In this document: piece after piece, positions 41,686-60,360 of the stretch | Position numbering within the stretch: position 1 is the first letter of the stretch | How the letters are laid out: each line of letters begins with the position of its first letter | From: a virus | Taxonomy: Duplodnaviria > Caudoviricetes | IMG/VR virus record: IMGVR_UViG_3300033121_000493 | Coordinates: 32,001-96,000 of that record | Direction: 5' to 3' (one strand) | DNA: 64,000 nucleotides | Translations under genes and position numbers: made by a program | Notes under the pieces: generated by a model | What the model was told of the DNA's origin: nothing | Seen by the model: only the letters and a program-made list of their open reading frames with translations | The model's database searches: none

Positions 41686-41702
41686 AGTTTGTCCTACAGT
41701 CT

Positions 41703-41927: not shown

Positions 41928-41939
41928 TGGATATCTCCT

Positions 41940-42766: not shown

Positions 42767-42769
42767 TTG

Positions 42770-43918: not shown

Positions 43919-43978
43919 AAAAGATATTCACGCTATTGGACTCGAAACGTATAGTTTAGTCAAATTTCACTGATACCT

Positions 43979-44019
43979 AAAAAAAAGACCCCACACAACA
44001 AATAGTTGTGTAGGGTCTT
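43979..44019 (-). terminator. Rho-independent terminator
   Basis: AAGACCCTACACAAC-TATTT-GTTGTGTGGGGTCTT followed by a T run. Confidence 0.8.
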
Positions 44020-44128
44020 GGTGTATCGTATAAAAACACGCAGCGAGTCACAATCCAATAGTCCGGTAGACTAAAGAACCATAACCCGCTGGTAGCTCAA
44101 AGCGCCGATACTGAGTTTAGCTCAGTAT

Positions 44129-44656: not shown

Positions 44657-44836
44657 TTGTCTTTTTCCTTGTCTTGGTTTCGGATTCAGAAACAGGTCAC
44701 AGCGATACAATCGTTATATACAGCTTAGTAAAAGTCTACGGCCTACAGGCACAATACCCAAACAAAGTTTGTATTTTTATTATCTATATGCTCATACTAA
44801 CGCGTACTTTTAGATTATCAACTGTAGATCACTAAA

Positions 44837-46099: not shown

Positions 46100-46216
46100 A
46101 GAGTGCTCCTTGAGCTGATGATTGGTTTCCAGGGAAGACAGAACAAGACACGACACTATAGACATAGTGTATAAAGATATGCCTAGACAAATGTGTAGCG
46201 CGCTACAGCCTAGTTA

Positions 46217-46798
46217 TTACTTGTTGGAAGCTCTGTTATTTTCAGCAATAACGTAAGCCAGAAAATTGTTTAACGGCGCAGCAATGATTGCAGTGCCATC
46301 GTACGGCATTGATATTTTATGATTGCAATTGTGGCACTGCGCCAGATACTGGCCAGGATTGATTGGATCAACCAAATATCTGTGTGCCGTAGCCAGAATT
46401 AGACCGCCGCACGTGTGACACGAAGCCTGACCTATTGTGATGAACACATTGCCGTTTAACTTTACAGGAGCGTCACAAAGACCTCCATCGCCAAAGTAGA
46501 TCGATTCTCCGCGATTTGCTGGAGTAAACGCGCCGCTATTGAGCACGCTTACCCACAGTCTCGAAATACAGTTCTGACAACCAAAAACTAGTTCTTTACC
46601 GATATAAATACCGCCAATAATAGGCCGGTTACACGTAATGCTTTTTGCTGGAATGCCAGTGCAGCGCTCATGCTGCAGGACATTCTGAATCGCCTCTTTG
46701 CCCAGCGCGTTATCTTCTGGCGCGGCAAATATCGTTTCAAGGTGGGCTATCGCGCTGGAAATAGCCAAAGGATTTGGTACTGGGAGTTCTGGCAACAT
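46217..46798 (-). CDS. Cys-rich putative zinc-binding protein
   Basis: CQNC, CHTC and CHNC motifs. Confidence 0.6.
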   Translation of the reverse strand: MLPELPVPNPLAISSAIAHLETIFAAPEDNALGKEAIQNVLQHERCTGIPAKSITCNRPIIGGIYIGKELVFGCQNCISRLWVSVLNSGAFTPANRGESIYFGDGGLCDAPVKLNGNVFITIGQASCHTCGGLILATAHRYLVDPINPGQYLAQCHNCNHKISMPYDGTAIIAAPLNNFLAYVIAENNRASNK

Positions 46799-46839
46799 AC
46801 GCTTTCTCCTTTGTCTGTCTGCTTGTGCTCGGTATTATA

Positions 46840-47505
46840 TCATAGCATATCTAAATCCTCATAGCTTGGTTTACGTGCCATAGCTATAACATTTACAATT
46901 TGTTGAATCTGATCTAAGTTGTTGTTGGCAACAGCCTGCGTGTACGCACCGAATAACTCTTCAAATATCTTGCTCTTCTGTTTATAGTTTACATGTAAAC
47001 TTACACCGCACTTAAACAAGCCGCCTAGCTTGTTTTGGCGTTCTTTATCTGGTATTTCGCCTACGTCTATGTTACTGATCGTTTCAATCATCAAACGAGG
47101 CCAGTACAGACGTGAAGCACTGTGATCGTTTTGTGTATAAGCTCCTGAAATCTGCGGCAAGGATTTTATCAGTAGCGCATAAAGCCAAAAAGGATTAAAA
47201 CCAATATAAGGACGTAAAACAACGTATTGCTTATAGCAGTGTTTGTGTTCACCGTCAGGCAAAGTATCGACTATGCCAACACCTAAATTTTTATAGTAAA
47301 ATGGCATTGTTAACGAGAGCACGCCGTATACCAACACTGTATCGTTTAATTTGACATCTAATCTCCCACGCTCACGACTGTCCACAGGGTCATTAGTGTA
47401 CTTAAATCCGTACTTATTAAAGTTTTTAAGGCTTATTGTACGCGAAGTGGGATCATCTACACCTGATCCTGATAATAAAAGTTGGTACAAATGGCCTAGT
47501 TTCAT
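46840..47505 (-). CDS. Type I restriction specificity subunit (HsdS)-like, single TRD
   Basis: MKLGHL..LLSG; VKLNDTVLV; GVGIV; YVVLRP...NPFWLYALL; ISNIDVGEIPDKERQNKLG followed by a helix. Confidence 0.55.
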   Translation of the reverse strand: MKLGHLYQLLLSGSGVDDPTSRTISLKNFNKYGFKYTNDPVDSRERGRLDVKLNDTVLVYGVLSLTMPFYYKNLGVGIVDTLPDGEHKHCYKQYVVLRPYIGFNPFWLYALLIKSLPQISGAYTQNDHSASRLYWPRLMIETISNIDVGEIPDKERQNKLGGLFKCGVSLHVNYKQKSKIFEELFGAYTQAVANNNLDQIQQIVNVIAMARKPSYEDLDML

Positions 47506-47684
47506 TTGTCATCAAAAAATAAGAGACGTACAATATTTAATTGTTTAAACACAGTCCAGTGTGTCACGCTACGCACATTAGTTGCAGGGTTGCGTAACTC
47601 CATTGCGTAGTGTAAAGGTCTGTAGAAACCCATTTGACTACAAATATCCTTTCTCAGTTCACTGACAGTGATGTGTCTAGGCAT
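47502..47684 (-). CDS. Small hypothetical protein (array edge)
   Basis: Coupled ORF. Confidence 0.4.
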   Translation of the reverse strand: MPRHITVSELRKDICSQMGFYRPLHYAMELRNPATNVRSVTHWTVFKQLNIVRLLFFDDK

Positions 47685-47921
47685 TTAATAGCAATCTTTT
47701 AACGTCTCAAAAATATATTGTATGTGTGATATGTTGCGTGTACAGCGGCTTAACAAAACAGTATGAATGATTCTGCTATAGGCAAACATACGTTTTAGCC
47801 GTATAATATGGATACTAAAATAAGAACGCGCAAACGACTTAGGATAAATTGAATAATGTAATATATGAGTGAATCGGTGGTGTATGTTAATATGCTTAGA
47901 TTCATGCCATCTACGCGCCAC
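47685..47921 (-). CDS. Small paralog-array protein
   Basis: GGAGG SD; ESKHINI motif. Confidence 0.55.
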   Translation of the reverse strand: MARRWHESKHINIHHRFTHILHYSIYPKSFARSYFSIHIIRLKRMFAYSRIIHTVLLSRCTRNISHIQYIFETLKDCY

Positions 47922-47949
47922 GTTACCTCCTAAGATTAAACCTGGCTAG

Positions 47950-48150
47950 CTATATAGCATAAAGCGTTTTTGAAATCACTGATTTAATTACATCGGCGCT
48001 TCTGCTGTTAATAATCCCTTGTTGCGCAGAAAATTTTGTAATAACTGAATCAAATTCTTCTGCAAGAACATCAAAATCATAGCATACAGAATTGTTATAT
48101 TGCTTTACCCAGTCTGAACAGCTAAATTGTATAGCGTAACTATTTGCCAT
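47950..48150 (-). CDS. Small paralog-array protein
   Basis: NSYAIQF motif. Confidence 0.55.
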   Translation of the reverse strand: MANSYAIQFSCSDWVKQYNNSVCYDFDVLAEEFDSVITKFSAQQGIINSRSADVIKSVISKTLYAI

Positions 48151-48388
48151 ATAGAATATGCCCTAACCGCATTCGTACAGCGTTGCCTTGCTCTTCTGCA
48201 TGAACAAAGACCATAGCTTGTGCGGCTGAGTTGTTGAATGCTACGTAGTTATGCCGAAAATGATAGTGTACAAGTGAAATATTACACCAACATTTATATT
48301 TGGTATGCCAGACGATAAACACGCCACCAGATACGCGACAGTTAATCTCACAACTGCGATCAGTCTGTATTGCCATACATGACGTCAT
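48140..48388 (-). CDS. Small paralog-array protein (QTD subfamily)
   Basis: MAIQTDRSCEINC. Confidence 0.6.
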   Translation of the reverse strand: MTSCMAIQTDRSCEINCRVSGGVFIVWHTKYKCWCNISLVHYHFRHNYVAFNNSAAQAMVFVHAEEQGNAVRMRLGHILYGK

Positions 48389-48611
48389 CCATTATGGTTA
48401 GTAAGGCGTCCTCCAATACGTCGTAAACATTGCGTACAGCACTGGAATTCCCCCAAAATCTAATACTAAACTTATCCATACGATGTTTATTAATTTTGGC
48501 AATTTCAGTGCTACTTATATCGTCTTCTAAATAATAGCTTATAGCTTTAAAGTTCACACTAAATACGACGCCGCGCGACAAATCAGTCTGCATTGCTATA
48601 CACCACGTCAC
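48360..48611 (-). CDS. Small paralog-array protein (QTD subfamily)
   Basis: MQTDLSRGVVF; recent duplicate of 48583..48834. Confidence 0.65.
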   Translation of the reverse strand: MTWCIAMQTDLSRGVVFSVNFKAISYYLEDDISSTEIAKINKHRMDKFSIRFWGNSSAVRNVYDVLEDALLTIMDDVMYGNTD

Positions 48612-48834
48612 TGAATACGTTACGTAGCACTGAGTCTAAAGTAGTGCGAATACTACGCGCGGTGCTGTGGCTTGGCACAAGCTTACTGATAAACTTATTA
48701 CAAAAATCATACATGCGGCGTCTGTGAATTTTGACAATTTCAGTGTTATTTATGTCGTCGTCTAGATAGTAGCCTATAGCTTTAAAGCATACGGCAAATA
48801 CGATACTGCGGGATAGATCAGTCTGTATTGCCAT
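48583..48834 (-). CDS. Small paralog-array protein (QTD subfamily)
   Basis: MAIQTDLSRSIVF. Confidence 0.65.
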   Translation of the reverse strand: MAIQTDLSRSIVFAVCFKAIGYYLDDDINNTEIVKIHRRRMYDFCNKFISKLVPSHSTARSIRTTLDSVLRNVFSDVVYSNAD

Positions 48835-48835
48835 A

Positions 48836-49072
48836 CTAGGTGTCCTCTGTTGGGTCGTATAGTGAGCTACGTATTGTATAGCCTATACGCTGTATAACGT
48901 TACCAGTTATCTCCCTGCGAGATCTATTATTTTTTGTTTGCAGCTCTATAAAGGCTGACAACAATTTATTAGGGGTTAAAAGCGAGAATACGTGGCCGTG
49001 TTTGGGCGTATTCGGGAATATTGGAGCGAAAGTTATGAAACTGATATAAACCGCAACTTCAAAGCTAGTCAT
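48836..49072 (-). CDS. Small paralog-array protein
   Basis: MTSFEVAVYI. Confidence 0.55.
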   Translation of the reverse strand: MTSFEVAVYISFITFAPIFPNTPKHGHVFSLLTPNKLLSAFIELQTKNNRSRREITGNVIQRIGYTIRSSLYDPTEDT

Positions 49073-49293
49073 AATGAAATACAGCCGTACACAGTACTAC
49101 GAAACACATGCAGAGTCTTATCTCTAACGACGTTACATAAATTTCTATTGCGGCTTTGTAAATCTACAAATCTACGCAATAGACTACTAGAAGATAAAGT
49201 AATGCTGTGGCAGCGACGCCGTGTTAATCCGACATTTATTACACCTATATGCGTAGTACCACAGACAAATTCTAATTCAACGCTAACTGTCAC
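49069..49293 (-). CDS. Small paralog-array protein
   Basis: VSVELEF; similar to its neighbour (LLRRFVDLQSRN versus LLSAFIELQTKN). Confidence 0.55.
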   Translation of the reverse strand: MTVSVELEFVCGTTHIGVINVGLTRRRCHSITLSSSSLLRRFVDLQSRNRNLCNVVRDKTLHVFRSTVYGCISL

Positions 49294-49498
49294 AACGGAC
49301 CTCTAGCAGTATGGTTATTAGTTTGTCTAGCTGTATATAGCTAGCCGCAGACCGGTCTCTAATACCAAATACTCTATTTTCCAACTTACACGGCGGTGTA
49401 AATATTTGCCACGATAAAAGCAATTTCTTGTTATTTCTTTCGGCTGATTTAATGTATAGTCTAGTAGAGTATCCGCTAATGTAGATTGGTGTGGCCAC
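49283..49498 (-). CDS. Small hypothetical array protein
   Basis: Coupled ORF. Confidence 0.45.
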   Translation of the reverse strand: MATPIYISGYSTRLYIKSAERNNKKLLLSWQIFTPPCKLENRVFGIRDRSAASYIQLDKLITILLEVRCDS

Positions 49499-49501
49499 GC
49501 T

Positions 49502-49774
49502 TTACTCAGTAAACCAATTAACCGCTAGCACGGCTAAAATATTCATAAGTCTATTTCTTAAACCCGTAGCTCGTATCGCGTACGTACCTAGTTTGGTACG
49601 CAGTAGGATATCTTCATCGGGCTTTGCGGTTTCTGTTAACCCAATAAAACGAGCTTTTACTCCGTCCCTGTCATCCACGAAAAAGCATAAAGCGTAAACG
49701 TTATTTTTACGCGTAGAATAACCCTCTTGCAAGATAATCGCGCTAGATCTGGTTAATGATTTGTTATTTAACAA
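49502..49774 (-). CDS. Small paralog-array protein
   Basis: RSSAIIL motif; coupled. Confidence 0.5.
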   Translation of the reverse strand: MLNNKSLTRSSAIILQEGYSTRKNNVYALCFFVDDRDGVKARFIGLTETAKPDEDILLRTKLGTYAIRATGLRNRLMNILAVLAVNWFTE

Positions 49775-49982
49775 TGCTACCGCTTCGCGTGATCGCGTAC
49801 GAGCAAACTTGCACTAGGTCATAGCCACGGACAGGTGCTGTGTATCTAAACAAGCGCTTATCCATACATGTAACGAGCCGTAAAATATGCCGAGTACAGC
49901 AGTTGTTACGCGCTATTAGAGCTATCTCATTATTGAATCTACGTTCTGGTAAAAAATCACATGACCTTGATTCGCTACTCAC
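49764..49982 (-). CDS. Small paralog-array protein
   Basis: ESRSCDF motif. Confidence 0.5.
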   Translation of the reverse strand: MSSESRSCDFLPERRFNNEIALIARNNCCTRHILRLVTCMDKRLFRYTAPVRGYDLVQVCSYAITRSGSIVK

Positions 49983-50185
49983 TTAGCGTGGTATCCCCAT
50001 TGAAATGTCGAGCGGTGTACTGGTTCGTAGACACGCATAAGCTCTCTACGTAACGCCCGCAGCATTACTCCTGTCCTTGGGAATCTCATAGGCATACTGT
50101 AACTTTCTGGCGCAAATATATCGAAAACTTCGTTCTGTGAAAGATCATGTGGCGTTAAGTCTCTACTTTCTGCTTGCGTTTGCAT
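49979..50185 (-). CDS. Small paralog-array protein starting immediately after tRNA-Val
   Basis: MQTQAESRDL; the track start (50233) lies inside the tRNA. Confidence 0.5.
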   Translation of the reverse strand: MQTQAESRDLTPHDLSQNEVFDIFAPESYSMPMRFPRTGVMLRALRRELMRVYEPVHRSTFQWGYHAK

Positions 50186-50187
50186 AC

Positions 50188-50261
50188 TCGGCGCGACAGG
50201 ACTCGAACCTGCGACCCCCTGGGTGTAAACCAAGTGCTCTAGCCAGCTGAGCTACGCGCCA
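50188..50261 (-). tRNA. tRNA-Val(UAC), CCA not encoded
   Basis: Cloverleaf with D arm AGCTCAGCTGGCTAGAGC, anticodon arm CTTGG-TTTACAC-CCAGG, T arm GGTTCGAGTCC. Confidence 0.92.
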
Positions 50262-50265
50262 TTAG

Positions 50266-50340
50266 TCTAGGTAACTGGATTCGAACCAGCGGCCTCCTGA
50301 CCCCAAATCAGGCGCTCTAGCCAGACTGAGCTATACCTAG
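50266..50340 (-). tRNA. tRNA-Pro(UGG), CCA not encoded
   Basis: CTAGGTA/TACCTAG acceptor stem, anticodon arm CCTGA-TTTGGGG-TCAGG, T arm GGTTCGAATCC. Confidence 0.92.
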
Positions 50341-50368
50341 ATATCGAAGCACAATACAGCACATGTTG

Positions 50369-50638
50369 TTAAGCGTATACCTTACGCGACTGTACAGCAG
50401 ACAGTACAGCATCTTCTATCTCATCGCACAAGCTTATTATCATGTCATCCATTGTAGGGCTTATCTTCCAGGACAAGAGCCAATTCAACTTTGGCATTAA
50501 CCTATTTAATGACGCAGTGTGCGCGGCATATACCATTACTATGTCATACGCTCTAACGGTTTCTCGAAGTTGTAAGCTTGCCTGAAACGGGCTAGCATCA
50601 TACGCAAAGCGTACACCGAGACAGTTGTCAGCAGGCAA
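50369..50638 (-). CDS. Small paralog-array protein
   Basis: NCLGVRF motif; GGAG SD. Confidence 0.5.
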   Translation of the reverse strand: MPADNCLGVRFAYDASPFQASLQLRETVRAYDIVMVYAAHTASLNRLMPKLNWLLSWKISPTMDDMIISLCDEIEDAVLSAVQSRKVYA

Positions 50639-51112
50639 TTACATATCTCCAGCAACCAAGTGAAACCACGTCTAAGATAAACCGCCGCACAGCCACCATA
50701 TAAAAACAGCAATTGTAATTATCATTATAGCTATAAGTGCGTCAGCACATTTTGCCGCTAGACGATTATTACGCTCATCGTCTGTCACGGGATGTTATCC
50801 TTGTGATCCAAAAATATCAATTCCAAATATCCCCAACTGGACATTTATGATTTCTCTGATCAGATAGTACCAGAAATCCGGCATAGGGTGCGTTTGCATT
50901 TGTGTCTCCTTACGCGTAGCGCGCTACCGCTTTGGAAAACGGCGAATTCCAAAAACATGTGTATGCAATTTATCAACGACAGAGTCAATCTTAGTTTTGT
51001 CTTGAGTATCGTAGTTACCGTTAGCAATATCGCTCTGAATCTTAGCCACCATTGCTCGGCGAGTCACCAGTACGTCTGACATACGCACATCGCGTTTCAT
51101 ACTGACTCCTTT

Positions 51113-51595
51113 TTACAGATAACTGCTGTCTTGCCCGCGTTTGCGCTGCTGCAGTTTGACAATTTCAAGCATCAATTCTGCAATTTCATCGGCTGACAAC
51201 TTATCAATAGCTTCCAAAATACCGGCAGCGGCAGTCTTGCATTCCGCAGACCTGCACGTCTCTTCAGTTGAGTTTAGCAAATTACTAACTACATTACCAA
51301 GTGTAGAAAAGCAAGTTTTGTACTCGCTGTCACCTTCAATAGTAAATGTCCACTCGATACCTTTGTTTGTTACTTTGCCTACAGCGGCCTTCAAGTCGAT
51401 GCTGGATATGAACATTACTACTGCGCCACAAGGTAGCTCAACTGGCTTTCGCGTGTCCAGGAATCTACCTTCAAAGTCAAACCCTGTCTTTGCCGGAAGC
51501 TTAACGGCAGTGATATGCCGGTAGTAGTATTTATGAAGACCTTTACCCATGATATTTTGGGCATACGGACAAGGGTCAAGTTGGATTTTCGGCAC
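51113..51595 (-). CDS. Hypothetical phage protein
   Basis: 160 aa with TGFDFEGRFL; not an array-family member. Confidence 0.65.
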   Translation of the reverse strand: MPKIQLDPCPYAQNIMGKGLHKYYYRHITAVKLPAKTGFDFEGRFLDTRKPVELPCGAVVMFISSIDLKAAVGKVTNKGIEWTFTIEGDSEYKTCFSTLGNVVSNLLNSTEETCRSAECKTAAAGILEAIDKLSADEIAELMLEIVKLQQRKRGQDSSYL

Positions 51596-51599
51596 AGGT

Positions 51600-51896
51600 T
51601 TAGCCTTTTGTCTTGGGCTTTGTGTGTTTTTTGCGTGGACGTACTGTCATATAGGTACTGACGTTAGGCGAGAACTGGCGTAGCTTGTCGTTCACAATAT
51701 GATCCATTGATTGAGTATTCATACGCATATGAATAGACCTAGACATACCGCCAGCATACGAAAAATGCATTAGATCACTTATTTTTATGGCTATCGCAAA
51801 CGATATATCCTTGGCAATAAAAATTGGTATAGAATAATAGTCGGCATAGCTACATCTACTTAGGGCAGAACGCAGATAGTGAGGGACGTTACTCAC
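51600..51896 (-). CDS. Small hypothetical protein
   Basis: VPHYL N-terminus shared with neighbour VPYYL. Confidence 0.5.
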   Translation of the reverse strand: MSNVPHYLRSALSRCSYADYYSIPIFIAKDISFAIAIKISDLMHFSYAGGMSRSIHMRMNTQSMDHIVNDKLRQFSPNVSTYMTVRPRKKHTKPKTKG

Positions 51897-52137
51897 GACT
51901 GAATAGCCCAGGATATTCGAATTTACACCAAACCTTAAACAGTTGCCTGTGCATAGTACTAATTACATGTGCCCTACGGCGAGATGTTAATTGCTTATTT
52001 ATATCCATCACCCGATAAACATTCAGTTGCACTTGAATCGATGTTTGTTTGGCAGCAGGACCGTCGATAGCTGCTTTAATGACATCCACTTCGTACGCTG
52101 TGTGCTGTAGATAATAGGGAACTATAGCGGAGCTCAC
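51889..52137 (-). CDS. Small hypothetical protein
   Basis: GTGA coupling to the HAD gene. Confidence 0.5.
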   Translation of the reverse strand: MSSAIVPYYLQHTAYEVDVIKAAIDGPAAKQTSIQVQLNVYRVMDINKQLTSRRRAHVISTMHRQLFKVWCKFEYPGLFSRE

Positions 52138-52547
52138 TGGCCACTAGACTCTTCATACGTTTTTTTACGCTGCTGCAATTTTTGCATTAATAGTGGCCCA
52201 ATAACTTCCCAATCTGCGCCAGGTCTAGCGCCGAGTCTGGGCAGTTCTCTCAAAGGACAACCTACGGCAGCATCGTCCACGTACAGGTTAGCAAATGCTT
52301 TAGGGCTGCTTGACCAGCTCTGTTGCGGGTTTTTGTTAACGCCCCACAGCTGGATACCGTTAGCCTCACACCATTTGACTGCGTCATCTAGTTCTTTACC
52401 AGAGCGCATAGTCCACAGGATTAACTTCGCACCGGCTGTTTGTAGCTTCACGCACCACTCAACAGCGCCCGGTATAGCTGCGCCGATATCTGGATAAACG
52501 TGGTCAACCAGCGTGCCGTCAAAATCAATAGCAACTATGAACTGCAT
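52134..52547 (-). CDS. HAD-superfamily hydrolase/phosphatase (capless)
   Basis: Motif I IDFDGTL, motif II LILWTMR, PK, motif IV YVDD. Confidence 0.85.
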   Translation of the reverse strand: MQFIVAIDFDGTLVDHVYPDIGAAIPGAVEWCVKLQTAGAKLILWTMRSGKELDDAVKWCEANGIQLWGVNKNPQQSWSSSPKAFANLYVDDAAVGCPLRELPRLGARPGADWEVIGPLLMQKLQQRKKTYEESSGQ

Positions 52548-52581
52548 TCGACATCTCCGTGTGGCGCGTTGTAGAAATTTA

Positions 52582-52806
52582 CTAGACTAGAATACATTGT
52601 GTAGCCCGCCGTAAAATGCGACCTAACGTTATGTTTAAGGGAAGATAGGTAGTACTATATTGCGTATCCACAGGTTGCACGAATTCTTGATAGAGGGGTA
52701 CACGGTGTATTGATGCGTGTGATGTGTAATACTTATGTAACACCTCGCCGCTTATCTCGGTCACGTAGATCGCTACTTCATAACTTTTGCTGGGCTTTGT
52801 CCTCAT
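52582..52806 (-). CDS. Small paralog-array protein (PSKSYE subfamily)
   Basis: PSKSYEVAIYVT...YLPLNITLG. Confidence 0.65.
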   Translation of the reverse strand: MRTKPSKSYEVAIYVTEISGEVLHKYYTSHASIHRVPLYQEFVQPVDTQYSTTYLPLNITLGRILRRATQCILV

Positions 52807-53041
52807 GAGTTACCTCTGGTGTACTCAACTTAGCAATGCTACGCCGTAAAACGTGACCTAACGTTCTGTTTAAAGGAAGATAGGTATTACTATACCGCGT
52901 CCCTGTAGGCGATGCTATGTTTGGGCAGACGCGTATATAGTAGATTATTATGTCCGATATCTCGTGTAGATACCATGTAATTTCGCCTACATTGGTCACG
53001 TAGATTGCTATTTCATAACTTTTGCTGGGCATTGTCCCCAT
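52778..53041 (-). CDS. Small paralog-array protein (PSKSYE subfamily)
   Basis: PSKSYEIAIYVT...YLPLNRTLG. Confidence 0.65.
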   Translation of the reverse strand: MGTMPSKSYEIAIYVTNVGEITWYLHEISDIIIYYIRVCPNIASPTGTRYSNTYLPLNRTLGHVLRRSIAKLSTPEVTHEDKAQQKL

Positions 53042-53261
53042 GAGTTGCCTCTGGTGTACTCAACTTAGCAACGATACGCCGTGTAATAGTGAACATTAAA
53101 GGTGCGTATAACTGATCTATCCGCATACGAACAGCACTACGCCAATCCCACGACGTTATAATCCTACATGCAAATGATCGATTGGCAAATCGGCTCTTAA
53201 CGACGGCTGCAGGTACGTGGCTTGAATCGTATATTACAAAAACGAGACTATCGCTTAGCAC
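53013..53261 (-). CDS. Small paralog-array protein
   Basis: Shares the AKLSTPE.TH.D.AQQKL tail with 52778..53041. Confidence 0.6.
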   Translation of the reverse strand: MLSDSLVFVIYDSSHVPAAVVKSRFANRSFACRIITSWDWRSAVRMRIDQLYAPLMFTITRRIVAKLSTPEATHGDNAQQKL

Positions 53262-53490
53262 CTAGGTACCTTGCAACCTTAGTCCATAACCTGTATGTGG
53301 CGTTTGATAATCTACTGGCTATTGGTGTACCTGTCCTAACGTTGCCTATTGCACATAGGTGCTCGAATGATGTACCCAATACAATACCAATTAATATACA
53401 GTCATTATTAGTACTGCTAATGGTCGCTGAACCGCTAGAGTAGTAGAAGACATTAAACACTACCCCACGTGAGTTAGACGACTTAGTCAA
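53248..53490 (-). CDS. Small paralog-array protein
   Basis: NSRGVVFNV. Confidence 0.6.
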   Translation of the reverse strand: MTKSSNSRGVVFNVFYYSSGSATISSTNNDCILIGIVLGTSFEHLCAIGNVRTGTPIASRLSNATYRLWTKVARYLGAKR

Positions 53491-53713
53491 GTTTACGTTT
53501 GAACCCCTTTTTTACACGCAGTTCGAGCCTGTATAGCGTTGGTAATAGCAAGTCGCGCGTAGAGCTGTTAAGTGAATTATGACGATACAACTTTGAAAAA
53601 GAGTATGCGGCAGCAACATGTACTGCGATTGACTTAGAGTTACTATACTTACGCATATATCTGTTAACCGGAGCAAATGCCAATACGTTGAACTCAACTC
53701 CTTTGGATTTCAT
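53483..53713 (-). CDS. Small paralog-array protein
   Basis: KSKGVEFNV. Confidence 0.6.
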   Translation of the reverse strand: MKSKGVEFNVLAFAPVNRYMRKYSNSKSIAVHVAAAYSFSKLYRHNSLNSSTRDLLLPTLYRLELRVKKGFKRKLD

Positions 53714-53979
53714 CGAAATCTGGCTATAAGCAATTGGCAGCTATATAGTATAATAGTATTCGCTCTAAACGCCATACGCAACGTACGACCTATAACCCGT
53801 GAGTACATTGGTACCACAGCTGGCGTATCACAAAACGATACCCAATATTCTACGATTCGGCAAGCTGGATAGTCTTCTTTACCTGTGCTACGCTCTCCTG
53901 CAGCAGCGAAAAATTTAACACATAGACTAGCGTGAGGCACAGTGCAATATCCCCGCACATACGGATACAATACAAGCAC
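53710..53979 (-). CDS. Small paralog-array protein
   Basis: ASLCVKF; true start probably internal. Confidence 0.5.
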   Translation of the reverse strand: MLVLYPYVRGYCTVPHASLCVKFFAAAGERSTGKEDYPACRIVEYWVSFCDTPAVVPMYSRVIGRTLRMAFRANTIILYSCQLLIARFR

Positions 53980-54202
53980 TTGCGTTATTAACTATAGTTA
54001 ATATATTCCACGCCGCTAAGCTATGGCCGTCGCCATCAAACCCATGAGCTAGCGAACACGATATAATCCACACATGTTTATTGCGGATTACTAATACAAC
54101 ACCAGTATTAGGCTCTTCAGTCCAGTTATCTCGTACCGCCGCTCGTATTTCTAAAGTATTAGCTGCGCAGCTCGTCAATAGCACTCCCGTTTCTAAACTC
54201 AT
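53927..54202 (-). CDS. Small hypothetical array protein
   Basis: Coupled ORF. Confidence 0.45.
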   Translation of the reverse strand: MSLETGVLLTSCAANTLEIRAAVRDNWTEEPNTGVVLVIRNKHVWIISCSLAHGFDGDGHSLAAWNILTIVNNASACIVSVCAGILHCASR

Positions 54203-54419
54203 ACCTCAAATAGTCTATTAGTCGTATGACTAGCCGCCTGTAGCCGCTATATACATTTATCGAAACATCGCTAAATATAAAATTTGTTGGATAGTAGGCT
54301 ATAGCGTACACGACGCCAGTAGTTTGCCAATACCAAGTATGTATTGGGCTAACACTATCACCGATTCTTTGATATCGTACGCGGAATTGAACTGTTAACG
54401 ATTTACTATGCACGGCCAC
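54159..54419 (-). CDS. Small paralog-array protein
   Basis: SKSLTVQF. Confidence 0.55.
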   Translation of the reverse strand: MAVHSKSLTVQFRVRYQRIGDSVSPIHTWYWQTTGVVYAIAYYPTNFIFSDVSINVYSGYRRLVIRLIDYLRYEFRNGSAIDELRS

Positions 54420-54706
54420 ACTACGGTTGTATAGATAGCTTTTAGGACATTTAGCAACAATAAATATTGATTATGCCATTGCCGGTCAGCTGCGATCTGT
54501 ATATTTGTTTGCCGGTACCAGTTAGATTTCAAAATCGGATTTACGTCTACCAAAATGTCATAATTTTTATTAACTGTTATAAACAATAACACGCGCATAT
54601 ACGGGCAAAAACCAAACACAACTACGCGCGACTTTCTCAATGTGACCAGCCCCGTCTCGTACCAGTATAGACGTCTTCCATAACCCGTAATTCTTGCCAA
54701 CGCCAC
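54395..54706 (-). CDS. Small paralog-array protein
   Basis: RKSRVVVF; true start probably ~54640. Confidence 0.5.
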   Translation of the reverse strand: MALARITGYGRRLYWYETGLVTLRKSRVVVFGFCPYMRVLLFITVNKNYDILVDVNPILKSNWYRQTNIQIAADRQWHNQYLLLLNVLKAIYTTVVWPCIVNR

Positions 54707-54873
54707 TCTTGCTTATCAATTGTAAACTGTACCCACCTGGACATATACAAAGTAAACACTTTAACTGGAGTTGCACGTGTCCTAACGGTACCATCCACAT
54801 TAGTTACTTTAATCATATCAACAGCATAATTATATCCATTAAGTTCAAATACGATTGGCTGTGATTTTACCAA
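54637..54873 (-). CDS. Small paralog-array protein
   Basis: KSQPIVF. Confidence 0.55.
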   Translation of the reverse strand: MVKSQPIVFELNGYNYAVDMIKVTNVDGTVRTRATPVKVFTLYMSRWVQFTIDKQEWRWQELRVMEDVYTGTRRGWSH

Positions 54874-55118
54874 TTTAACACTACGCTATCATGCGCACGA
54901 GTCATACAGTCATTAAGCAAATTTCTACTAGCTACGAACCATTGGAAACTAAGCACCCGGTAATATACTGATACGTCATCTACGACGAGTATTGGCTTAA
55001 AGCTCAGCTCACAGTATTCATCGCTTAGTTCGCTGTACTGACCAACTTTTAGGATAACTCTGTGTACAGGCTTAAAAACAACCAGCGGTACAAATATTAC
55101 GCTGAGTGACTTATTCAT
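54867..55118 (-). CDS. Small paralog-array protein
   Basis: NKSLSVIF; AAGGA SD. Confidence 0.6.
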   Translation of the reverse strand: MNKSLSVIFVPLVVFKPVHRVILKVGQYSELSDEYCELSFKPILVVDDVSVYYRVLSFQWFVASRNLLNDCMTRAHDSVVLNW

Positions 55119-55121
55119 TCC

Positions 55122-55349
55122 TTATCGTTTTCTATTAAACGATATACGATTTACACCACGCCGCACCAGGCGCTTAGCCAGCCAACGCATAGACGCAGCG
55201 CACATGTCCACAAAGAAAAATAGTGTGGCGCAGTTAAACACGAATGACGTAAAACCAGAGTAGGACAGCACGTACGACGCTAGAAAAAAACCAAGGCCTA
55301 GCACAACAAGCGCGGTTACATACTCACAGTCATGCATTTGCGGCTCCAT
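55122..55349 (-). CDS. Small membrane protein
   Basis: Two hydrophobic stretches and a basic tail. Confidence 0.5.
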   Translation of the reverse strand: MEPQMHDCEYVTALVVLGLGFFLASYVLSYSGFTSFVFNCATLFFFVDMCAASMRWLAKRLVRRGVNRISFNRKR

Positions 55350-55557
55350 AGACGGGGCAAGCTACGCCGGTTGCAATAGCTAAGGATAAACGATGAAACA
55401 AAGCCAAAGGAAACATAGGTAAATTGCAAAAACACGGCTTAAGTAGAGCGTATGTATAGTTAAAGCGAAATACGCGGGCATAGCTACAAGAATGACGTCC
55501 GGAGGCGTCACCCCAGCGTAAGCTAAACGTTACGTCGAGAGATTTATCTACCGGCAT
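55330..55557 (-). CDS. Small paralog-array protein
   Basis: DKSLDVTF. Confidence 0.55.
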   Translation of the reverse strand: MPVDKSLDVTFSLRWGDASGRHSCSYARVFRFNYTYALLKPCFCNLPMFPLALFHRLSLAIATGVACPVYGAANA

Positions 55558-55802
55558 AACGAGATGCGCAATAGCCTAAGCCATGTTTTATTCTCTACAA
55601 TGAAATAAGGCGATCCTCTTACGACAATCTTCATATCAAACATGCTAAGACTTACTGTATTAAGTAAACACACTAGGTATCTATGGTCACTCCCATGAAA
55701 TGGGTAACCTGTTTTAGAAATTGTCGACGGGGAGGCGCGGTGCACATTAGGTATATCAAACTTAATCTCTTTACTGTGCATCTGACAGGCTGTCTGATTC
55801 AA
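55548..55802 (-). CDS. Small paralog-array protein
   Basis: HSKEIKF. Confidence 0.55.
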   Translation of the reverse strand: MNQTACQMHSKEIKFDIPNVHRASPSTISKTGYPFHGSDHRYLVCLLNTVSLSMFDMKIVVRGSPYFIVENKTWLRLLRISLCR

Positions 55803-56043
55803 TAAAAGATCTACAAAGTTTTTTCACTGTAATAACAACTACATAATACACACGGCGCGTGACCAATGTAAAACTAGCAAAAAGCGAGCCCATAGACACT
55901 TTCTCCCAGAGTAAATGGTAACCACCGCTTACAACTGCACTACGGAATTTAGAATTAGACATCAAACACTCCGGCAGCCATGCATTTTTCACGAAGTATT
56001 TTATACTGACTATATATTGTGTTTTCAACGCGCGCTTGAACAT
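55771..56043 (-). CDS. Small hypothetical array protein
   Basis: True start probably MSNSKF. Confidence 0.45.
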   Translation of the reverse strand: MFKRALKTQYIVSIKYFVKNAWLPECLMSNSKFRSAVVSGGYHLLWEKVSMGSLFASFTLVTRRVYYVVVITVKKLCRSFIESDSLSDAQ

Positions 56044-56215
56044 GGTGTCTTGTGATGTAAACTCTGTCTGGCGCGTGTATATCGCACAGATTTAACGGTA
56101 AAATTCGCCAAGTGTTAGAAAAAACTAGACCGTCAGGTACTACTAGCATGGTTTGCAATTCGTGTAGTTTTAGATCAAACCGTAGAGAGAACCCAACACC
56201 ACAGCACTTAGGCAT
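55955..56215 (-). CDS. Small paralog-array protein
   Basis: KCCGVGFSLR, compare KSLDVTFSLR. Confidence 0.55.
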   Translation of the reverse strand: MPKCCGVGFSLRFDLKLHELQTMLVVPDGLVFSNTWRILPLNLCDIHAPDRVYITRHHVQARVENTIYSQYKILREKCMAAGVFDV

Positions 56216-56437
56216 TTATCCCATACCATTCGTCATGTGCCATAAAATATTATGACACTCGTCAAATAATGATATAAGGTTACGGGTCACAATGTTTAAG
56301 CGAATAGTGCTGTACGTAAGAACCTTTACATCAATCCAGAAGCTGCCAGTGCGTGGATCAGGATCACACGCTACTGCAGCGCCAACATATGAATACCCAA
56401 GGACGATGTATATCTCTTGATTACAAAACTTAGCCAT
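56216..56437 (-). CDS. Small paralog-array protein (QEI subfamily)
   Basis: Recent duplicate of 56430..56648. Confidence 0.7.
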   Translation of the reverse strand: MAKFCNQEIYIVLGYSYVGAAVACDPDPRTGSFWIDVKVLTYSTIRLNIVTRNLISLFDECHNILWHMTNGMG

Positions 56438-56648
56438 TCGTCATGCGCCATAAAATATTATGACACTCGTCAAATAATGGTCTATAGTTACGGGTCACAA
56501 TGTTTAAGCGAATAGCGTTGTACGGAAGAACCCTTACATCAATCCAAAGGACGCCAGTGCGTGGATCAGGACCGCATACTACTCCAGCACGGCCAACATA
56601 TGAATACGCAAGGACGGCGTATATCTCTTGACTATAAAACCTAGCCAT
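56430..56648 (-). CDS. Small paralog-array protein (QEI subfamily)
   Basis: YSQEIYAV...WIDV...MTNG. Confidence 0.7.
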   Translation of the reverse strand: MARFYSQEIYAVLAYSYVGRAGVVCGPDPRTGVLWIDVRVLPYNAIRLNIVTRNYRPLFDECHNILWRMTNG

Positions 56649-56850
56649 TCGTCATAAACCGTATAGCGGCGTTACACTTACGGACTACTAGACTATTGTT
56701 ACGGTCCGCAATGTCTAAGCGGGCAGAGAAACAATAAGACTTAAATAAACGCACATCAATCCATAGGCAGCCAATGTCCGGCGTGCAGCCAAAGTCCACT
56801 GTAGCATCATTAGAGCCTATAACGGTAATGGCTATCTCTTGACTCTTAAT
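56641..56850 (-). CDS. Small paralog-array protein (QEI subfamily), ATT start, not in ORF track
   Basis: GGAG-N6-ATT AAG AGT CAA GAG ATA; ...LWIDVR...RLDIADRN...MTNG. Confidence 0.6.
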   Translation of the reverse strand: MKSQEIAITVIGSNDATVDFGCTPDIGCLWIDVRLFKSYCFSARLDIADRNNSLVVRKCNAAIRFMTNG

Positions 56851-57106
56851 GAGCTTCTCCTAACGACTTTGTCAATAGGCGAATATAGCGTCCAAGTGTC
56901 CTGGTAATAGGCGAAAATTCATTAAAAGCCCAATCCCAGTCAAACATATTATTTGCGCGTATACAGTTCCGTACAATATGAAATATGCCTAATGAACAGT
57001 CATCCCACGAATATACGCTACCATTAAACCCCAAACCACCACCATGCTGAGTATATGTGGCACCGCCAACGTTAAGCATAATTTCACAACTGGTAAATGA
57101 TGGCAA
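56846..57106 (-). CDS. Small paralog-array protein
   Basis: FTSCEIML. Confidence 0.55.
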   Translation of the reverse strand: MPSFTSCEIMLNVGGATYTQHGGGLGFNGSVYSWDDCSLGIFHIVRNCIRANNMFDWDWAFNEFSPITRTLGRYIRLLTKSLGEAH

Positions 57107-57326
57107 TCAGCCTCCTAGCTGCCATTCTAGCGAGTGGAATTACATCTCTATACGTGTGTGGAGTAATATTCATACCAAATCTAATATCTAACGTGCGAAC
57201 TATAGGCCTTACGTCAATGATGTATAGACTATCGTCGTAAGAGGCTGTCGCTAATGACAATACGCGCGGCGCTGTAATCGTAGGGTACAGCGTACATGTA
57301 ACCTCACACGACTTAAAATTTGTCAC
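57084..57326 (-). CDS. Small paralog-array protein
   Basis: FKSCEVTC...YIIDVR. Confidence 0.55.
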   Translation of the reverse strand: MTNFKSCEVTCTLYPTITAPRVLSLATASYDDSLYIIDVRPIVRTLDIRFGMNITPHTYRDVIPLARMAARRLIAIIYQL

Positions 57327-57543
57327 TAATCTGCTTCCACACGTCTATGAAAACACTACTACAAGTATCTACGTTATCCGGTCGTATGAATCTTGTTTGT
57401 AAATCACTCCAACAAACAAGCTCTAGCTGTACAAAGTAACTATCGATATAGTAACCGCGCCAGGTGTGTACTACTCGCACCCATCGTTCTGTAGAAGCAT
57501 ATAGCCGCCGTACGGCGATATCACGACTAGACCCGTCAGCCAT
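57313..57543 (-). CDS. Small paralog-array protein
   Basis: SSRDIAV. Confidence 0.55.
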   Translation of the reverse strand: MADGSSRDIAVRRLYASTERWVRVVHTWRGYYIDSYFVQLELVCWSDLQTRFIRPDNVDTCSSVFIDVWKQISDKF

Positions 57544-57847
57544 ATAGCTGTCCAGTATTACGGAATTGGATACGACAAGCGGCAGAAGACATATGTGCTG
57601 CTATTGCCCTACCATAAAAATCGGCAAACAAATTACTAAACGCTATACATTGTAACGAGACAAGTAGTGCCGGTGGCGCTGTACGGTAGATGTCAACAAT
57701 CGGTGGCCGTATAGTACAATCATCCTCTGGCTCTGATACTAACATTTGTATTCGTAGCACAAGGCTACAAAATTTATTTCCAGCGTCTGGTTGCACCCAC
57801 CAAGCCCCAAAAAAGGATTCGATCAAGAATACTACGAAAGCTTGCAC
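57536..57847 (-). CDS. Small hypothetical array protein
   Basis: True start probably internal (near KFCSLVLRI). Confidence 0.4.
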   Translation of the reverse strand: MQAFVVFLIESFFGAWWVQPDAGNKFCSLVLRIQMLVSEPEDDCTIRPPIVDIYRTAPPALLVSLQCIAFSNLFADFYGRAIAAHMSSAACRIQFRNTGQLYG

Positions 57848-57992
57848 TCAGTGGTGCGTTGTCAAACAAATCACTTCTAGTCATATACTCCATAGCTATA
57901 TACATTCTTTCTTCGTTGTCGTGACTGCGATCACGCTTTACAAAAAAACTATTATTAGCGGCCCTAACAGCGTAACTGCGGCATTTATGCAT
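57774..57992 (-). CDS. Small paralog-array protein
   Basis: KCRSYAV. Confidence 0.5.
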   Translation of the reverse strand: MHKCRSYAVRAANNSFFVKRDRSHDNEERMYIAMEYMTRSDLFDNAPLSASFRSILDRILFWGLVGATRRWK

Positions 57993-58221
57993 AAAGTTTA
58001 AGCCACATAGCCTTTGTTACCCTGCCACACAACATAGTAACAGTAGGCGTTATCGCCTCGGGTAGATCTTCATCAAAGAAGACATCGACGACTGTGCGCC
58101 GTCCTATTAAAATGGTCTTTGTGGCAAAAGGATGTGCCTGCCAAAGAGCAACTGCGGGCTGATCAATACGGTGTACTTCCAGTATCAATGCAGTAACGTC
58201 ACAACTAGGGTTAAAGCTCAA
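57985..58221 (-). CDS. Small paralog-array protein
   Basis: PSCDVTAL; GGGGAG SD. Confidence 0.55.
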   Translation of the reverse strand: MSFNPSCDVTALILEVHRIDQPAVALWQAHPFATKTILIGRRTVVDVFFDEDLPEAITPTVTMLCGRVTKAMWLKLYA

Positions 58222-58430
58222 GGCTCCCCTCGTATATGCGTCTCAATATGATACATAGTGAGTTCTCGGTGCGGATAGGACGGTTGTTAATTAGAGATCT
58301 TGGGGATGGTACACAATAAACCACACAGAACACGCCTAGTATCAAGGTTTTGTGTTCGTATTTGTATACGCCTACAGTATCGTCAGAGGCGAAGCCTGAT
58401 CTAGTATATATTGCGACGCCGTGTTAACAT
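58211..58430 (-). pseudogene. Degraded array member
   Basis: Open frame HGVAIYTRSG...ILRRIYEGSLEL* preceded by an in-frame TAA; the nearest ATG is out of frame. Confidence 0.45.
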
Positions 58431-58682
58431 TCTTTTTAGTAAAATCTCTATCATATATTCTGTCATAGTCAGGAGGTGTGGGACTGGTCGCCACTTAGAA
58501 TTTGAAACGCATATTTCAATTGCCACATACTTGAAATCCATATTCACGTAAAAATAGCACTGGCGTCTATTACGCTCTGCGCCGTCATTTTTGTATATGA
58601 GGTCGTGGTATACGTCTACACATAAACTAGTTTTACGAGCTCTGCGGCTGCGCAAATAGTCTTCCAGTGTTTTCGTCGCCGT
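58401..58682 (-). CDS. Array protein (extended subfamily), probable ACG start
   Basis: GGGAG-N6-ACG GCG ACG AAA; TKTLEDYL...KTSLCVDV. Confidence 0.5.
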   Translation of the reverse strand, partial: TATKTLEDYLRSRRARKTSLCVDVYHDLIYKNDGAERNRRQCYFYVNMDFKYVAIEICVSNSKWRPVPHLLTMTEYMIEILLKRMLTRRRNIY

Positions 58683-58708
58683 ATTGTTCTCCCGGCTGCA
58701 GCAGGTGC

Positions 58709-58975
58709 TTAGCGGTGAGGCCGTAAAGTCACGTACGCACAATCACATACTTTACTAGCTACACGTCCTACGGCAATCATAACATTTAATGAGGCGATGG
58801 GTTTCAAAAGAAAACCACCGCGTAGATGATTCATTTTAATTACTACATTATCTCTAGTTGCTTGTGCGTAAGTAAAATACGCACCACGAACCATCTCCCG
58901 CCACTCAGCTGTGCTAACAGTACGCCAATCGACTGGAAAAACAATATCAACGCCTACGCTACGTTCATAGCACAA
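58709..58975 (-). CDS. Small paralog-array protein
   Basis: RSVGVDI. Confidence 0.5.
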   Translation of the reverse strand: MCYERSVGVDIVFPVDWRTVSTAEWREMVRGAYFTYAQATRDNVVIKMNHLRGGFLLKPIASLNVMIAVGRVASKVCDCAYVTLRPHR

Positions 58976-58981
58976 AAGGGT

Positions 58982-59269
58982 TTAGTCCTTTGATAGGATA
59001 CACCGCTTTACACTGTCTAGTACAGCACGCTCAGGCTGCAGCGACTCAATCAGATAGTTGCGTACAATTTCGCGAAATAGCGTAAAGCGATTGGGTATGT
59101 CTATAGCTGTTATTTCAATATAAAAAATAGCATTCAGTGGGGTGAGATGCACCGCTGTTGTAGTCACCGAGGTAACACAACGTACTCTATGTATATAGAC
59201 AGGTGTTGCTTTTTCAAACGGTCGTTTAGATAAATATGCACGTAGTCTTTTTATACTAGTCATCGGCAA
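58982..59269 (-). CDS. Array protein (extended subfamily)
   Basis: IKRLRAYL...YIEITAI. Confidence 0.55.
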   Translation of the reverse strand: MPMTSIKRLRAYLSKRPFEKATPVYIHRVRCVTSVTTTAVHLTPLNAIFYIEITAIDIPNRFTLFREIVRNYLIESLQPERAVLDSVKRCILSKD

Positions 59270-59532
59270 CTAAGAAAATTGTTTAAACAATAGTCTGTGC
59301 TATCTAATACCGCGATACACCGCCTTCTTATCAAGTGGTTAATTTGCCGCAAATAACTAGGCCTTGTGCCGCCACCTACACAACAATGTAGTCTAATCGT
59401 TATTTCGCCAAACACGCTTACGTCTCCGATGCATGCTGTAGCCGGATATGGTAGCCACGCGCTGTATACCACGTCTATTGGACCAACTTTTCTAGGTGTA
59501 GATAAAAAATTTTTTAGTTGCGGTGTTTGCAT
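59260..59532 (-). CDS. Array protein (MQT subfamily)
   Basis: MQTPQLK; TGATG coupling. Confidence 0.6.
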   Translation of the reverse strand: MQTPQLKNFLSTPRKVGPIDVVYSAWLPYPATACIGDVSVFGEITIRLHCCVGGGTRPSYLRQINHLIRRRCIAVLDSTDYCLNNFLSCR

Positions 59533-59807
59533 CAATTTCTTTTTGGCTGTTTTAAGCACTGTAAAGCAGATTTTGCTACATCAGCACATACAGAGCGTAG
59601 CCTATTTGTAATCCGCCGCGCGACGCTAACCCTGACAAAGTTGACACCCGTCCAGCGTAGCTTGATTACGAACACTTGTCGAAGCATATATACGCGCGTA
59701 GAACTAGTGTCCGCATAAGTTATGGAATTGTTTAATTCTTGCGAAGCACTTATTTCGATAGACTCTCTGTGCACAGGCTGAAAAGATTTTAATGCTGGTG
59801 ATTGCAT
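59532..59807 (-). CDS. Array protein (MQT subfamily)
   Basis: MQSPALK; TGATG coupling. Confidence 0.6.
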   Translation of the reverse strand: MQSPALKSFQPVHRESIEISASQELNNSITYADTSSTRVYMLRQVFVIKLRWTGVNFVRVSVARRITNRLRSVCADVAKSALQCLKQPKRN

Positions 59808-60088
59808 CAATCGTGTCTGTAGTCCCGCAAACATCGATACATACTTTCTATTATGTCTCCGCATAAATTATGTATGTAACGTGTATATGAAACCGTCGAC
59901 GAATAGTAGTAATCGTTTATGCAGTATAACGTAATTTCTATCCTGGTATTATACGGGTCTATAGTACCGACGCATCCATTATTTTTGCATTCTCGTAACG
60001 TCGGACGAACAGTATAGGCGATGTCTATCACTAACGATTTTTTCCACTGCGGATTAGACATATAGCGCTTTAATGCCAGCGTTTGCAT
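59807..60088 (-). CDS. Array protein (MQT subfamily)
   Basis: MQTLALKRY...WKKSLVIDI...IEITLYC. Confidence 0.6.
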   Translation of the reverse strand: MQTLALKRYMSNPQWKKSLVIDIAYTVRPTLRECKNNGCVGTIDPYNTRIEITLYCINDYYYSSTVSYTRYIHNLCGDIIESMYRCLRDYRHD

Positions 60089-60096
60089 TACTCTTC

Positions 60097-60360
60097 TTAC
60101 AACTCGTAGAAGTCGGGGTCTATACGTTTTACTAAATTTCGGCACCAAGTGCGTAAAGTACTCATAGCCTGTCGATTCCTGGACCGTAAAATGTAACGAT
60201 CCAAACAGTATAGCTTAATTATTAATCTACTGCTACGAAATCCGTCTATATCGCCAATACACGAAAACCGAATATCCCTACGCGCAGACTCGCAGATAAC
60301 CTGTATATCCCAAGACTTTTTGCCATTAGCCCTGTAGTATTTTAATTCTGGTGTCTGCGT
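60097..60360 (-). CDS. First array member, overlapping the RNAP 3' end, ACG start (not in ORF track)
   Basis: GGAG-N6-ACG CAG ACA CCA GAA TTA AAA, i.e. (M)QTPELKYY..GKKSWDIQV...LIIKLYC. Confidence 0.55.
   Translation of the reverse strand, partial: TQTPELKYYRANGKKSWDIQVICESARRDIRFSCIGDIDGFRSSRLIIKLYCLDRYILRSRNRQAMSTLRTWCRNLVKRIDPDFYEL

Follow-up and report, generated by a model that had tools for sequence, protein, structure and literature searches.

A tandemly amplified family of small orphan proteins between the split RNA polymerase genes of a 202,582-bp phage genome

We analyzed a window of 64,000 nucleotides (nt), bases 32001-96000 of the 202,582-bp single-contig virus record IMGVR_UViG_3300033121_000493, a phage genome that is rated complete, has a G+C content of 45%, and carries nearly all of its genes on the minus strand. 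Between window positions 47502 and 60360 (minus strand) about 48 tiling open reading frames (ORFs) form an array, and it is established that the array harbors a real, orphan, tandemly amplified family of small proteins, to which we assign 34 of these ORFs; two tRNA genes and a few non-family genes lie in the same interval. The family is not confined to the array: two more arrays were located, with at least 10 copies at genome 102.4-110.2 kb and at least eight at 193.1-197.3 kb, as well as one isolated copy at 120.3 kb, giving at least 53 members genome-wide, of which at least 19 are outside the array, and occupying about 6% of the DNA. The stretch is the largest block of this lineage-specific multigene family. 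The family expanded as single-gene units of 208-275 nt were duplicated in tandem time after time, in the variable interval that separates the two genes of the phage's split RNA polymerase (RNAP), and most copies have since diverged beyond sequence recognition. Our confidence in the explanation as a whole, including the translation and the role discussed below, is somewhat better than even; on this view the family would evolve by birth and death, like multigene families in large eukaryotic DNA viruses.

Open frames, a shared motif, and common protein features

The first-pass annotation of this region, made from the sequence alone, had described a head-to-tail array of about 45 small paralogs, and the array proved real. 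On the minus strand, 56 open stretches of at least 60 codons cover 97.1% of positions 47502-60360, as opposed to 17 stretches and 29.6% on the plus strand, while 200 first-order Markov simulations yielded 15.9 ± 3.5 stretches and 26% coverage (maximum, 41%). The paralog count stood only in part, in that the family is real and 34 members can be demonstrated, but about 13 of the tiling ORFs score like decoys with the family hidden Markov model (HMM) and two tRNA genes interrupt the series. Most of the array genes were also predicted by a public gene caller on other assemblies of the same phage. When codon usage was scored with models trained on the long genes of the phage and stop codons were left out, the margin for the called frame averaged +0.027 across 54 array ORFs, compared to -0.20 for spurious ORFs (those inside real genes) and +0.096 for true genes, and was above 99% of the null in 38 of the 54. 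The codon signal in the array is weak yet clearly coding-like. An alternative genetic code, also considered, is unneeded, the frames being open under table 11.

Manual anchoring recovered the N-terminal motif S-x-x-[V/I]-x-[F/I/V], or a one-residue variant of it, in the 34 ORFs, at 2-9 codons after the nearest start codon. In a motif scan limited to sites at most 25 codons from an upstream stop and followed by at least 45 open codons, there were 20 occurrences in the 12.9-kb array, compared to about one in most other 5-kb bins of the genome, corresponding to an enrichment at ORF starts of about 8-fold. A fuller form of the motif, located in the first strand, is [K/R]-S-x-[E/D/G/..]-[V/I]-x-F. 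Outside the arrays, the motif was absent from larger or otherwise different proteins. Among 53 members, the motif serine is encoded by AGY and TCN codons in comparable numbers, and the 45 nt upstream of the 53 anchored genes contain about 0 bits of information. Because AGY and TCN are not interconvertible by a single mutation, and because the upstream sequence is uninformative, conservation acts at the level of the protein; a DNA- or RNA-level motif, be it a promoter, a ribosome-binding site, or an RNA element, was ruled out by the split serine codons and unconserved flanks.

Beyond the motif, the proteins, of 75-95 amino acids (aa), share a length and an architecture. The distance from motif to stop is 74.4 ± 5.0 aa, the bodies are rich in beta-forming residues, and the median isoelectric point (pI) is 9.3, in comparison to 6.3 for the long proteins of the phage. 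The basic amphipathic C-terminal helix that had been proposed earlier is borne out by the last 32 aa, in which the helical hydrophobic moment exceeds that of shuffled sequences (mean z 1.07, p 3e-8), and by the last third of the proteins, which has a net charge of +1.7, holds most of the positive charge, and is enriched in helix formers. In MAFFT alignments, a mid-protein hydrophobic-x-hydrophobic-Arg strand and the C-terminal helix align. When each cluster was left out in turn from HMM construction, the median rank of the left-out members was 58 among 1120 decoy ORFs, with no individual score significant; with the motif removed, the median rank was 140 of 1120 (Kolmogorov-Smirnov p 9e-9).

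These features bear on whether the interval might be an ordinary hyperplastic region made up of several unrelated small early gene families, with the motif arising convergently as a generic first beta-strand. The presence of about 13 ORFs that are not members, and the interspersed non-family genes and tRNAs, fit such a region, as does the result of blastp and of iterative profile searches (jackhmmer), which unite only four small clusters of adjacent genes. For the full set of 34, common descent is accordingly argued from the motif, the length, and the helix. Nevertheless, we regard unrelated families as highly improbable, since the motif is enriched at ORF starts and confined to the arrays, the motif-to-stop length has a standard deviation of 5 aa, the left-out sequences stripped of their motif still rank far above decoys, and the mid-protein arginine column and C-terminal helix align. 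The shared motif, tight length, and helix, together with four clusters of tandem paralogs with periods of 208-275 nt, uphold the original proposal of one family that arose by serial tandem duplication.

We strongly infer that the array ORFs are translated, because the frames stay open, the motif serine switches between AGY and TCN codons, and one pair of paralogs is under purifying selection. For most members the probable route is translational coupling on long polycistronic mRNAs, given that Shine-Dalgarno-like sites are few and most of the genes overlap a neighbor. Promoter-like and terminator-like sites in the array were at the level of shuffled sequence, without enrichment. Co-transcription behind the RNAP gene is compatible with the shared strand, the overlapping genes, and the lack of a terminator excess.

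Duplication, divergence, and selection within the array

All four groups of recent duplicates that had been noted (48140-48834, 52582-53261, 56216-56850, and 59260-60360) were verified as clusters of paralogs, and DNA repeats occur only within such clusters, with a period of one gene (208-275 nt). The youngest cluster, at 56216-56859 (minus strand), comprises three paralogs (56216-56437, 56430-56648, and 56641-56859), the first two of which are 74% identical in amino acid and 88% identical in nucleotide sequence. These two differ at 4 synonymous and 21 nonsynonymous sites, a ratio indistinguishable from neutrality (p 0.63), and positive selection in this pair is for that reason not supported. 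Within 48140-48834 (minus strand), 48360-48611 and 48583-48834 have 46% amino acid identity, and a third ORF, 48140-48388, shares the N-terminus only. The ratio of nonsynonymous to synonymous substitution rates (dN/dS) of this pair is 0.32 and synonymous changes are in excess (p 0.0016), which points to purifying selection. The cluster at 52582-53261 (minus strand) consists of 52582-52806 and 52778-53041, which are 46% identical with a dN/dS of 0.81, indistinguishable from neutrality, and of 53013-53261, which shares the C-terminus. In the last of these clusters the junction at 52749-52847 is 89% identical to that at 52984-53082 over 99 nt, as compared with about 67% for the gene bodies, and this pattern suggests unequal crossing-over or gene conversion centered on the junctions.

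The fourth cluster, at 59260-60360 (minus strand), contains four paralogs, of which 59260-59559, 59532-59864, and 59807-60148 are 22-27% identical to each other and 60097-60360 was joined to them by jackhmmer. Together with 58982-59269 and 58401-58742 they make up a subfamily of six, subfamily F, in which an additional N-terminal helix, M-Q-T-x-x-L-K-x-[YF]-L, precedes the motif. The gene-caller products P0002-P0005 fall in this group.

Across the array, pair identities span from 74% in amino acid sequence to undetectable. The earlier statement that neighbors are more alike than distant members holds only within the four clusters; once these were collapsed, similarity showed no trend with distance (p 0.58). 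Its observation that neither a reverse transcriptase nor a common cassette repeat is present was likewise confirmed: the reverse transcriptase family PF00078 had no match in the whole 202,582-bp genome, although control genomes were positive, and a search for a template/variable repeat pair with adenine-specific differences found only whole-gene tandem copies among the DNA repeats. A diversity-generating retroelement, which would require both a reverse transcriptase and a template repeat, was excluded on these grounds. Taken together, the results on selection, the near-random composition, the few Shine-Dalgarno sites, and the missing start codons describe a birth-and-death process that runs fast and is only loosely constrained.

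A canonical start codon is missing from two members. In 60097-60360, the first member of the array, there is no in-frame ATG, GTG, or TTG before the motif. Here, the RNAP stop codon overlaps an out-of-frame ATG (TAATG), followed by a run of A (GCAAAAAG), and this ATG is one base off the frame of 60097-60360. This copy may be dead, or its frame may be entered through a -1 slip or reinitiation. In 56641-56859, the third copy of the youngest cluster, an ATT overlaps the TAA of the upstream gene, and the ORF was skipped by the public gene caller. The youngest cluster is also where a 156-kb Logan contig of the same phage (SRR32380191) comes to an end, at 56268, inside the 56216/56430 pair, which is what a break in short-read assembly at the repeat would produce; differences in copy number between samples could go unseen here.

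Several observations weigh against the multigene-family reading. As well as the limited reach of profile iteration and the weak codon signal, the amino acid composition is nearer to that of random translation than to the phage proteome (8.4% arginine), a Shine-Dalgarno-like site precedes only 28% of members, compared to 46-60% of long genes and 9.5% of random windows, two members (60097-60360 and 56641-56859) have no canonical start, and the rates of two of the three paralog pairs are neutral-like. Structure prediction likewise established no fold: AlphaFold2 reached a predicted local distance difference test score (pLDDT) of 64 with a 53-row family alignment, with confidence only in residues 50-75, that is, the C-terminal helix, and in the first 10 residues, while a 6-row alignment of subfamily F gave a pLDDT of 53, and the ESM Atlas model of another member was poor (pLDDT 0.49).

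Some of the same observations, namely the near-random composition, the neutral-like dN/dS in two of three pairs, the weak codon signal with few Shine-Dalgarno sites, and the two copies without a start codon, along with the absence of the family from the locus of the closest relative (L010, below), would favor mostly non-functional DNA. Under this alternative, a duplicated and perhaps de novo ORF would persist as filler or as selfish repeats, its frames still open because it arose recently, because of gene conversion, or because selection acts weakly on some of the copies. We consider this distinctly unlikely, as most copies have diverged to saturation, yet frames of at least 60 codons cover 97% of the interval, the motif serine has been kept across two codon families, the length variance is small, and one pair is under purifying selection.

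The single small fold that had been envisaged for the family is conjectural, given that profiles join local clusters only, that the leave-one-out HMM ranking gave enrichment with no significant score, and that the two AlphaFold2 runs were of low confidence. A confident model is available from the ESM Atlas for one member, P0002 (predicted template-modeling score 0.83, pLDDT 0.85). Its structural neighbors were unnamed viral clusters, a PemK/MazF cluster, and an RNase-H-like cluster, with template-modeling (TM) scores of 0.55-0.64; the comparison to the PemK cluster scored 0.63 when normalized by query and 0.33 by target. We treat the P0002 model as a lead to a predicted sheet-plus-C-terminal-helix fold, with no assignment. 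Like the small beta-rich folds of CcdB and MazF, in which an SH3-like beta barrel is combined with a C-terminal helix, the model has a predicted beta sheet followed by a C-terminal helix (TM by query 0.58-0.64), but the members have no sequence similarity to these proteins and no antitoxin-like partner, and the TM scores are too low for assignment in proteins so short. An ESM Atlas feature search with two members returned no usable match.

Relatives, known systems, and possible functions

Sequence searches returned little beyond the phage itself. The array had no megablast match among 50,697 phage records, and a scan of IMG/VR with RNAP peptide patterns provided no confirmed relative. A word-indexed search of 5.8 billion protein clusters with 48360-48611 as query recovered itself only, on contigs from four samples that were 99.98-100% identical to the window. 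When 1.84 billion representative proteins were searched exhaustively with an HMM of subfamily F, the only matches were four proteins of the phage itself and P0006, a spurious protein made up of 12 repeats. None of the small ORFs matched Pfam or PHROGs, in which the HAD-like gene of the array alone had a match, and searches of PDB sequences with both family profiles gave nothing below an expectation value (E) of 0.7. Hence, this orphan family looks confined to one lineage, and the earlier impression that the system had not been described before held up across the Pfam, PHROG, and PDB sequence searches and the 1.84 billion representatives.

The nearest cultured relatives of the phage are very distant, with RNAP identities of 32% for Salmonella phage Arash and about 31% for Vibrio phages D69, D181, and D148, and in both D69 and Arash the two RNAP genes are 0.6-5 kb apart. 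RNAP searches placed the phage within a large metagenomic phage clade, in which several members are represented by contigs of about 200 kb. The closest of these, L010, has 70% RNAP identity and retains two anchors. One is a DUF6745 gene downstream of the array (44837-46165, minus strand), with 36% identity to L010:19191-20369, and the other is a non-family gene of 160 aa inside the array (51113-51595, minus strand), with 36% identity to L010:16184-16510. The distance from RNAP to DUF6745, between orthologous anchors, is 14.2 kb in our phage and 3.2 kb in L010, where the interval contains eight ordinary small genes, none with the motif. In a second relative, L012 (62% RNAP identity, 39.5% G+C), 23 overlapping ORFs lie directly upstream of RNAP (L012:2036-9525, plus strand). 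These are about 85 aa long, with a pI of about 9.3 and a similar composition, and include one paralog pair (2987-3292 and 3253-3501). The L012 array had neither the motif nor HMM similarity to the family, and scores of the family HMM against the loci of the three relatives L010-L012 were no better than those of decoys. It thus seems characteristic of the clade to carry, next to the polymerase, arrays of small basic genes that evolve quickly.

The location next to RNAP raises the alternative that the members are small proteins that bind nucleic acids or modulate the polymerase and may oligomerize through the N-terminal strand; they would tune transcription by the phage RNAP or coat DNA or RNA. 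In keeping with this, the median pI is 9.3, the positive charge is concentrated in the C-terminal helix, and arrays sit beside RNAP genes both here and, in the form of the analogous 23-ORF basic array, in L012. We nonetheless find it rather unlikely, because no member matched any DNA- or RNA-binding family in the Pfam, PHROG, and PDB searches, about 50 diverged copies are rarely needed for regulators, and a basic pI also follows from a near-random composition with 8.4% arginine.

The setting of the array recalls the hyperplastic regions of T4-like phages, in which the conserved core genes are interrupted by blocks of small genes that vary from lineage to lineage and have no known function (PMC4122927, PMC2839356). 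As in those regions, the content of the array differs sharply between relatives, as the 14.2 kb and 3.2 kb intervals illustrate. In T4-type regions most genes are unrelated to one another, and their shuffling is mediated by promoter/stem-loop (PeSL) cassettes on either side of each gene (PMC4122927, PMC2839356). Here, in contrast, one family dominates, genes overlap, and there is no conserved intergenic DNA; no conserved promoter and stem-loop per gene was found, with about 0 bits upstream of the 53 genes and repeats only within clusters.

Another comparison concerns virion proteins. The internal proteins IPI-IPIII of phage T4 are small, basic, and hypervariable, keep a short N-terminal peptide, and are encoded at a polymorphic locus, and at least one of them, IPI*, is an anti-restriction protein. 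The phiKZ-type prohead protease has the cleavage consensus S/A/G-x-E. By analogy, the array members might be packaged in the virion and injected, with the N-terminal motif acting as a capsid-targeting or protease-processing tag and the variable bodies as injected effectors. Consistent with this, the array members, like the T4 internal proteins, are small, basic, and hypervariable with a shared N-terminal motif, the S-x-E of many copies resembles the prohead-protease consensus, and the array immediately precedes the structural module, with which it shares a strand. The T4 internal proteins, however, have only a tag of about 10 aa in common, with bodies that differ in size and fold, whereas the array members also share length and C-terminal helix, and their copy number is an order of magnitude higher. 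Moreover, only some members have E as the third motif residue, which in others is D, G, S, T, P, A, C, or V, and, being absent from larger or different proteins outside the arrays, the motif behaves like part of one domain and not like a portable tag. For these reasons we think a virion role fairly improbable.

The multigene-family reading draws instead on large eukaryotic DNA viruses. The MGF110, MGF360, and MGF505 families of African swine fever virus (ASFV) and the 'genomic accordions' of poxviruses consist of tandem diverged paralogs in variable regions, evolve by birth and death, and have been linked to host range and immune evasion. Like these, the array has tandem paralogs of graded age in a variable locus, recent duplicates lying beside ancient ones; unlike the array, the ASFV and poxvirus families belong to eukaryotic viruses and encode larger proteins. 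Copy number in those families varies between strains, while the four metagenomic samples of our phage are 99.98-100% identical.

Extending the analogy to function, the members could be diversified variants of a single scaffold that bind or inhibit host components, for counter-defense or host takeover. We put forward this host-directed reading as tentative, with confidence well short of even, and by analogy from the rapid lineage-specific expansion, the variable locus, and the small size of the proteins. More speculative still is a repertoire of more than 50 variants of a miniature scaffold, born in the lineage and possibly de novo, that would work like a combinatorial library, its binders directed at host components that vary, for example defense systems. 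A homodimer prediction for 53486-53713 had a score of 0.01 and weighs neither for nor against binding. If a binder repertoire is correct, the family would be a phage counterpart of the immune-evasion multigene families of eukaryotic DNA viruses, and, if its members are counter-defense proteins, many new inhibitors could be drawn from one compact array; if the copies are inert, the array would show clearly that a viral genome of limited size can tolerate repeats as long as a gene. Small orphan genes fill large phages, and where they come from and what they are for has long been an open question. With copies of every age, from 88% nucleotide identity to unrecognizable, and with L010 as a syntenic 'before' state, gene birth and expansion become testable in this system, as do the relation of array diversity to the diversity of host defenses and the question of what a minimal strand-plus-helix scaffold binds.

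Other members, interspersed genes, and flanking genes

Outside the four clusters, the members on the minus strand occur singly. At the downstream edge of the array is 47950-48150, and two single members, 48836-49072 and 49069-49293, occupy 48836-49293. A diverged member at 50369-50638, in which Cys replaces the motif Ser, lies beside the genes for tRNA-Val(TAC) and tRNA-Pro(TGG), which are located inside the array at 50188-50340 (minus strand). Within 53248-55802 there are nine single diverged members: 53248-53490, 53483-53713, 53710-53979, 54159-54419, 54395-54706, 54637-54873, 54867-55118, 55330-55557, and 55548-55802. A further diverged member with a degenerate motif is located at 55955-56215, and six more (56846-57106, 57084-57326, 57313-57543, 57985-58221, 58401-58742, and 58709-58975) are distributed over 56846-58975. 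Four longer ORFs elsewhere in the genome, at genome positions 103538-103921, 108283-108897, 195918-196292, and 197213-197716, begin with the same N-terminal motif and may be extended or fused copies.

Interspersed on the same strand are ORFs that could not be demonstrated to be members (57536-57847, 57774-57992, and 58214-58423), a non-member between single members (53927-54202), and a non-member of 75 aa at 55122-55349 that is predicted to be a two-helix membrane protein with a basic tail. The non-family HAD-like phosphatase gene is at 52134-52547 (minus strand; phrog_1238, E 1.9e-28).

The remainder of the gap between the two RNAP genes (40834-47505, minus strand) encodes orphan proteins of 221, 193, 193, 382, 192, and 208 aa and the DUF6745 protein; searches with the larger products from this interval found only DUF6745 and weak PHROG matches of unknown function. 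Directly upstream of the array, the gene for a fusion of RNAP beta and the N-terminal part of beta' (beta'-N) is at 60326-63991 (minus strand) and is cut by the end of the window. Its downstream partner in the split polymerase, the gene for the C-terminal part (beta'-C), is at 38030-40834 (minus strand), 19.5 kb away, and most of the gap is occupied by the array. The beta'-C gene contains a Hint intein, of a type associated with homing endonucleases (PF05203, E 1.3e-10), and its product is 934 aa long, compared to about 616 aa in the closest relatives.

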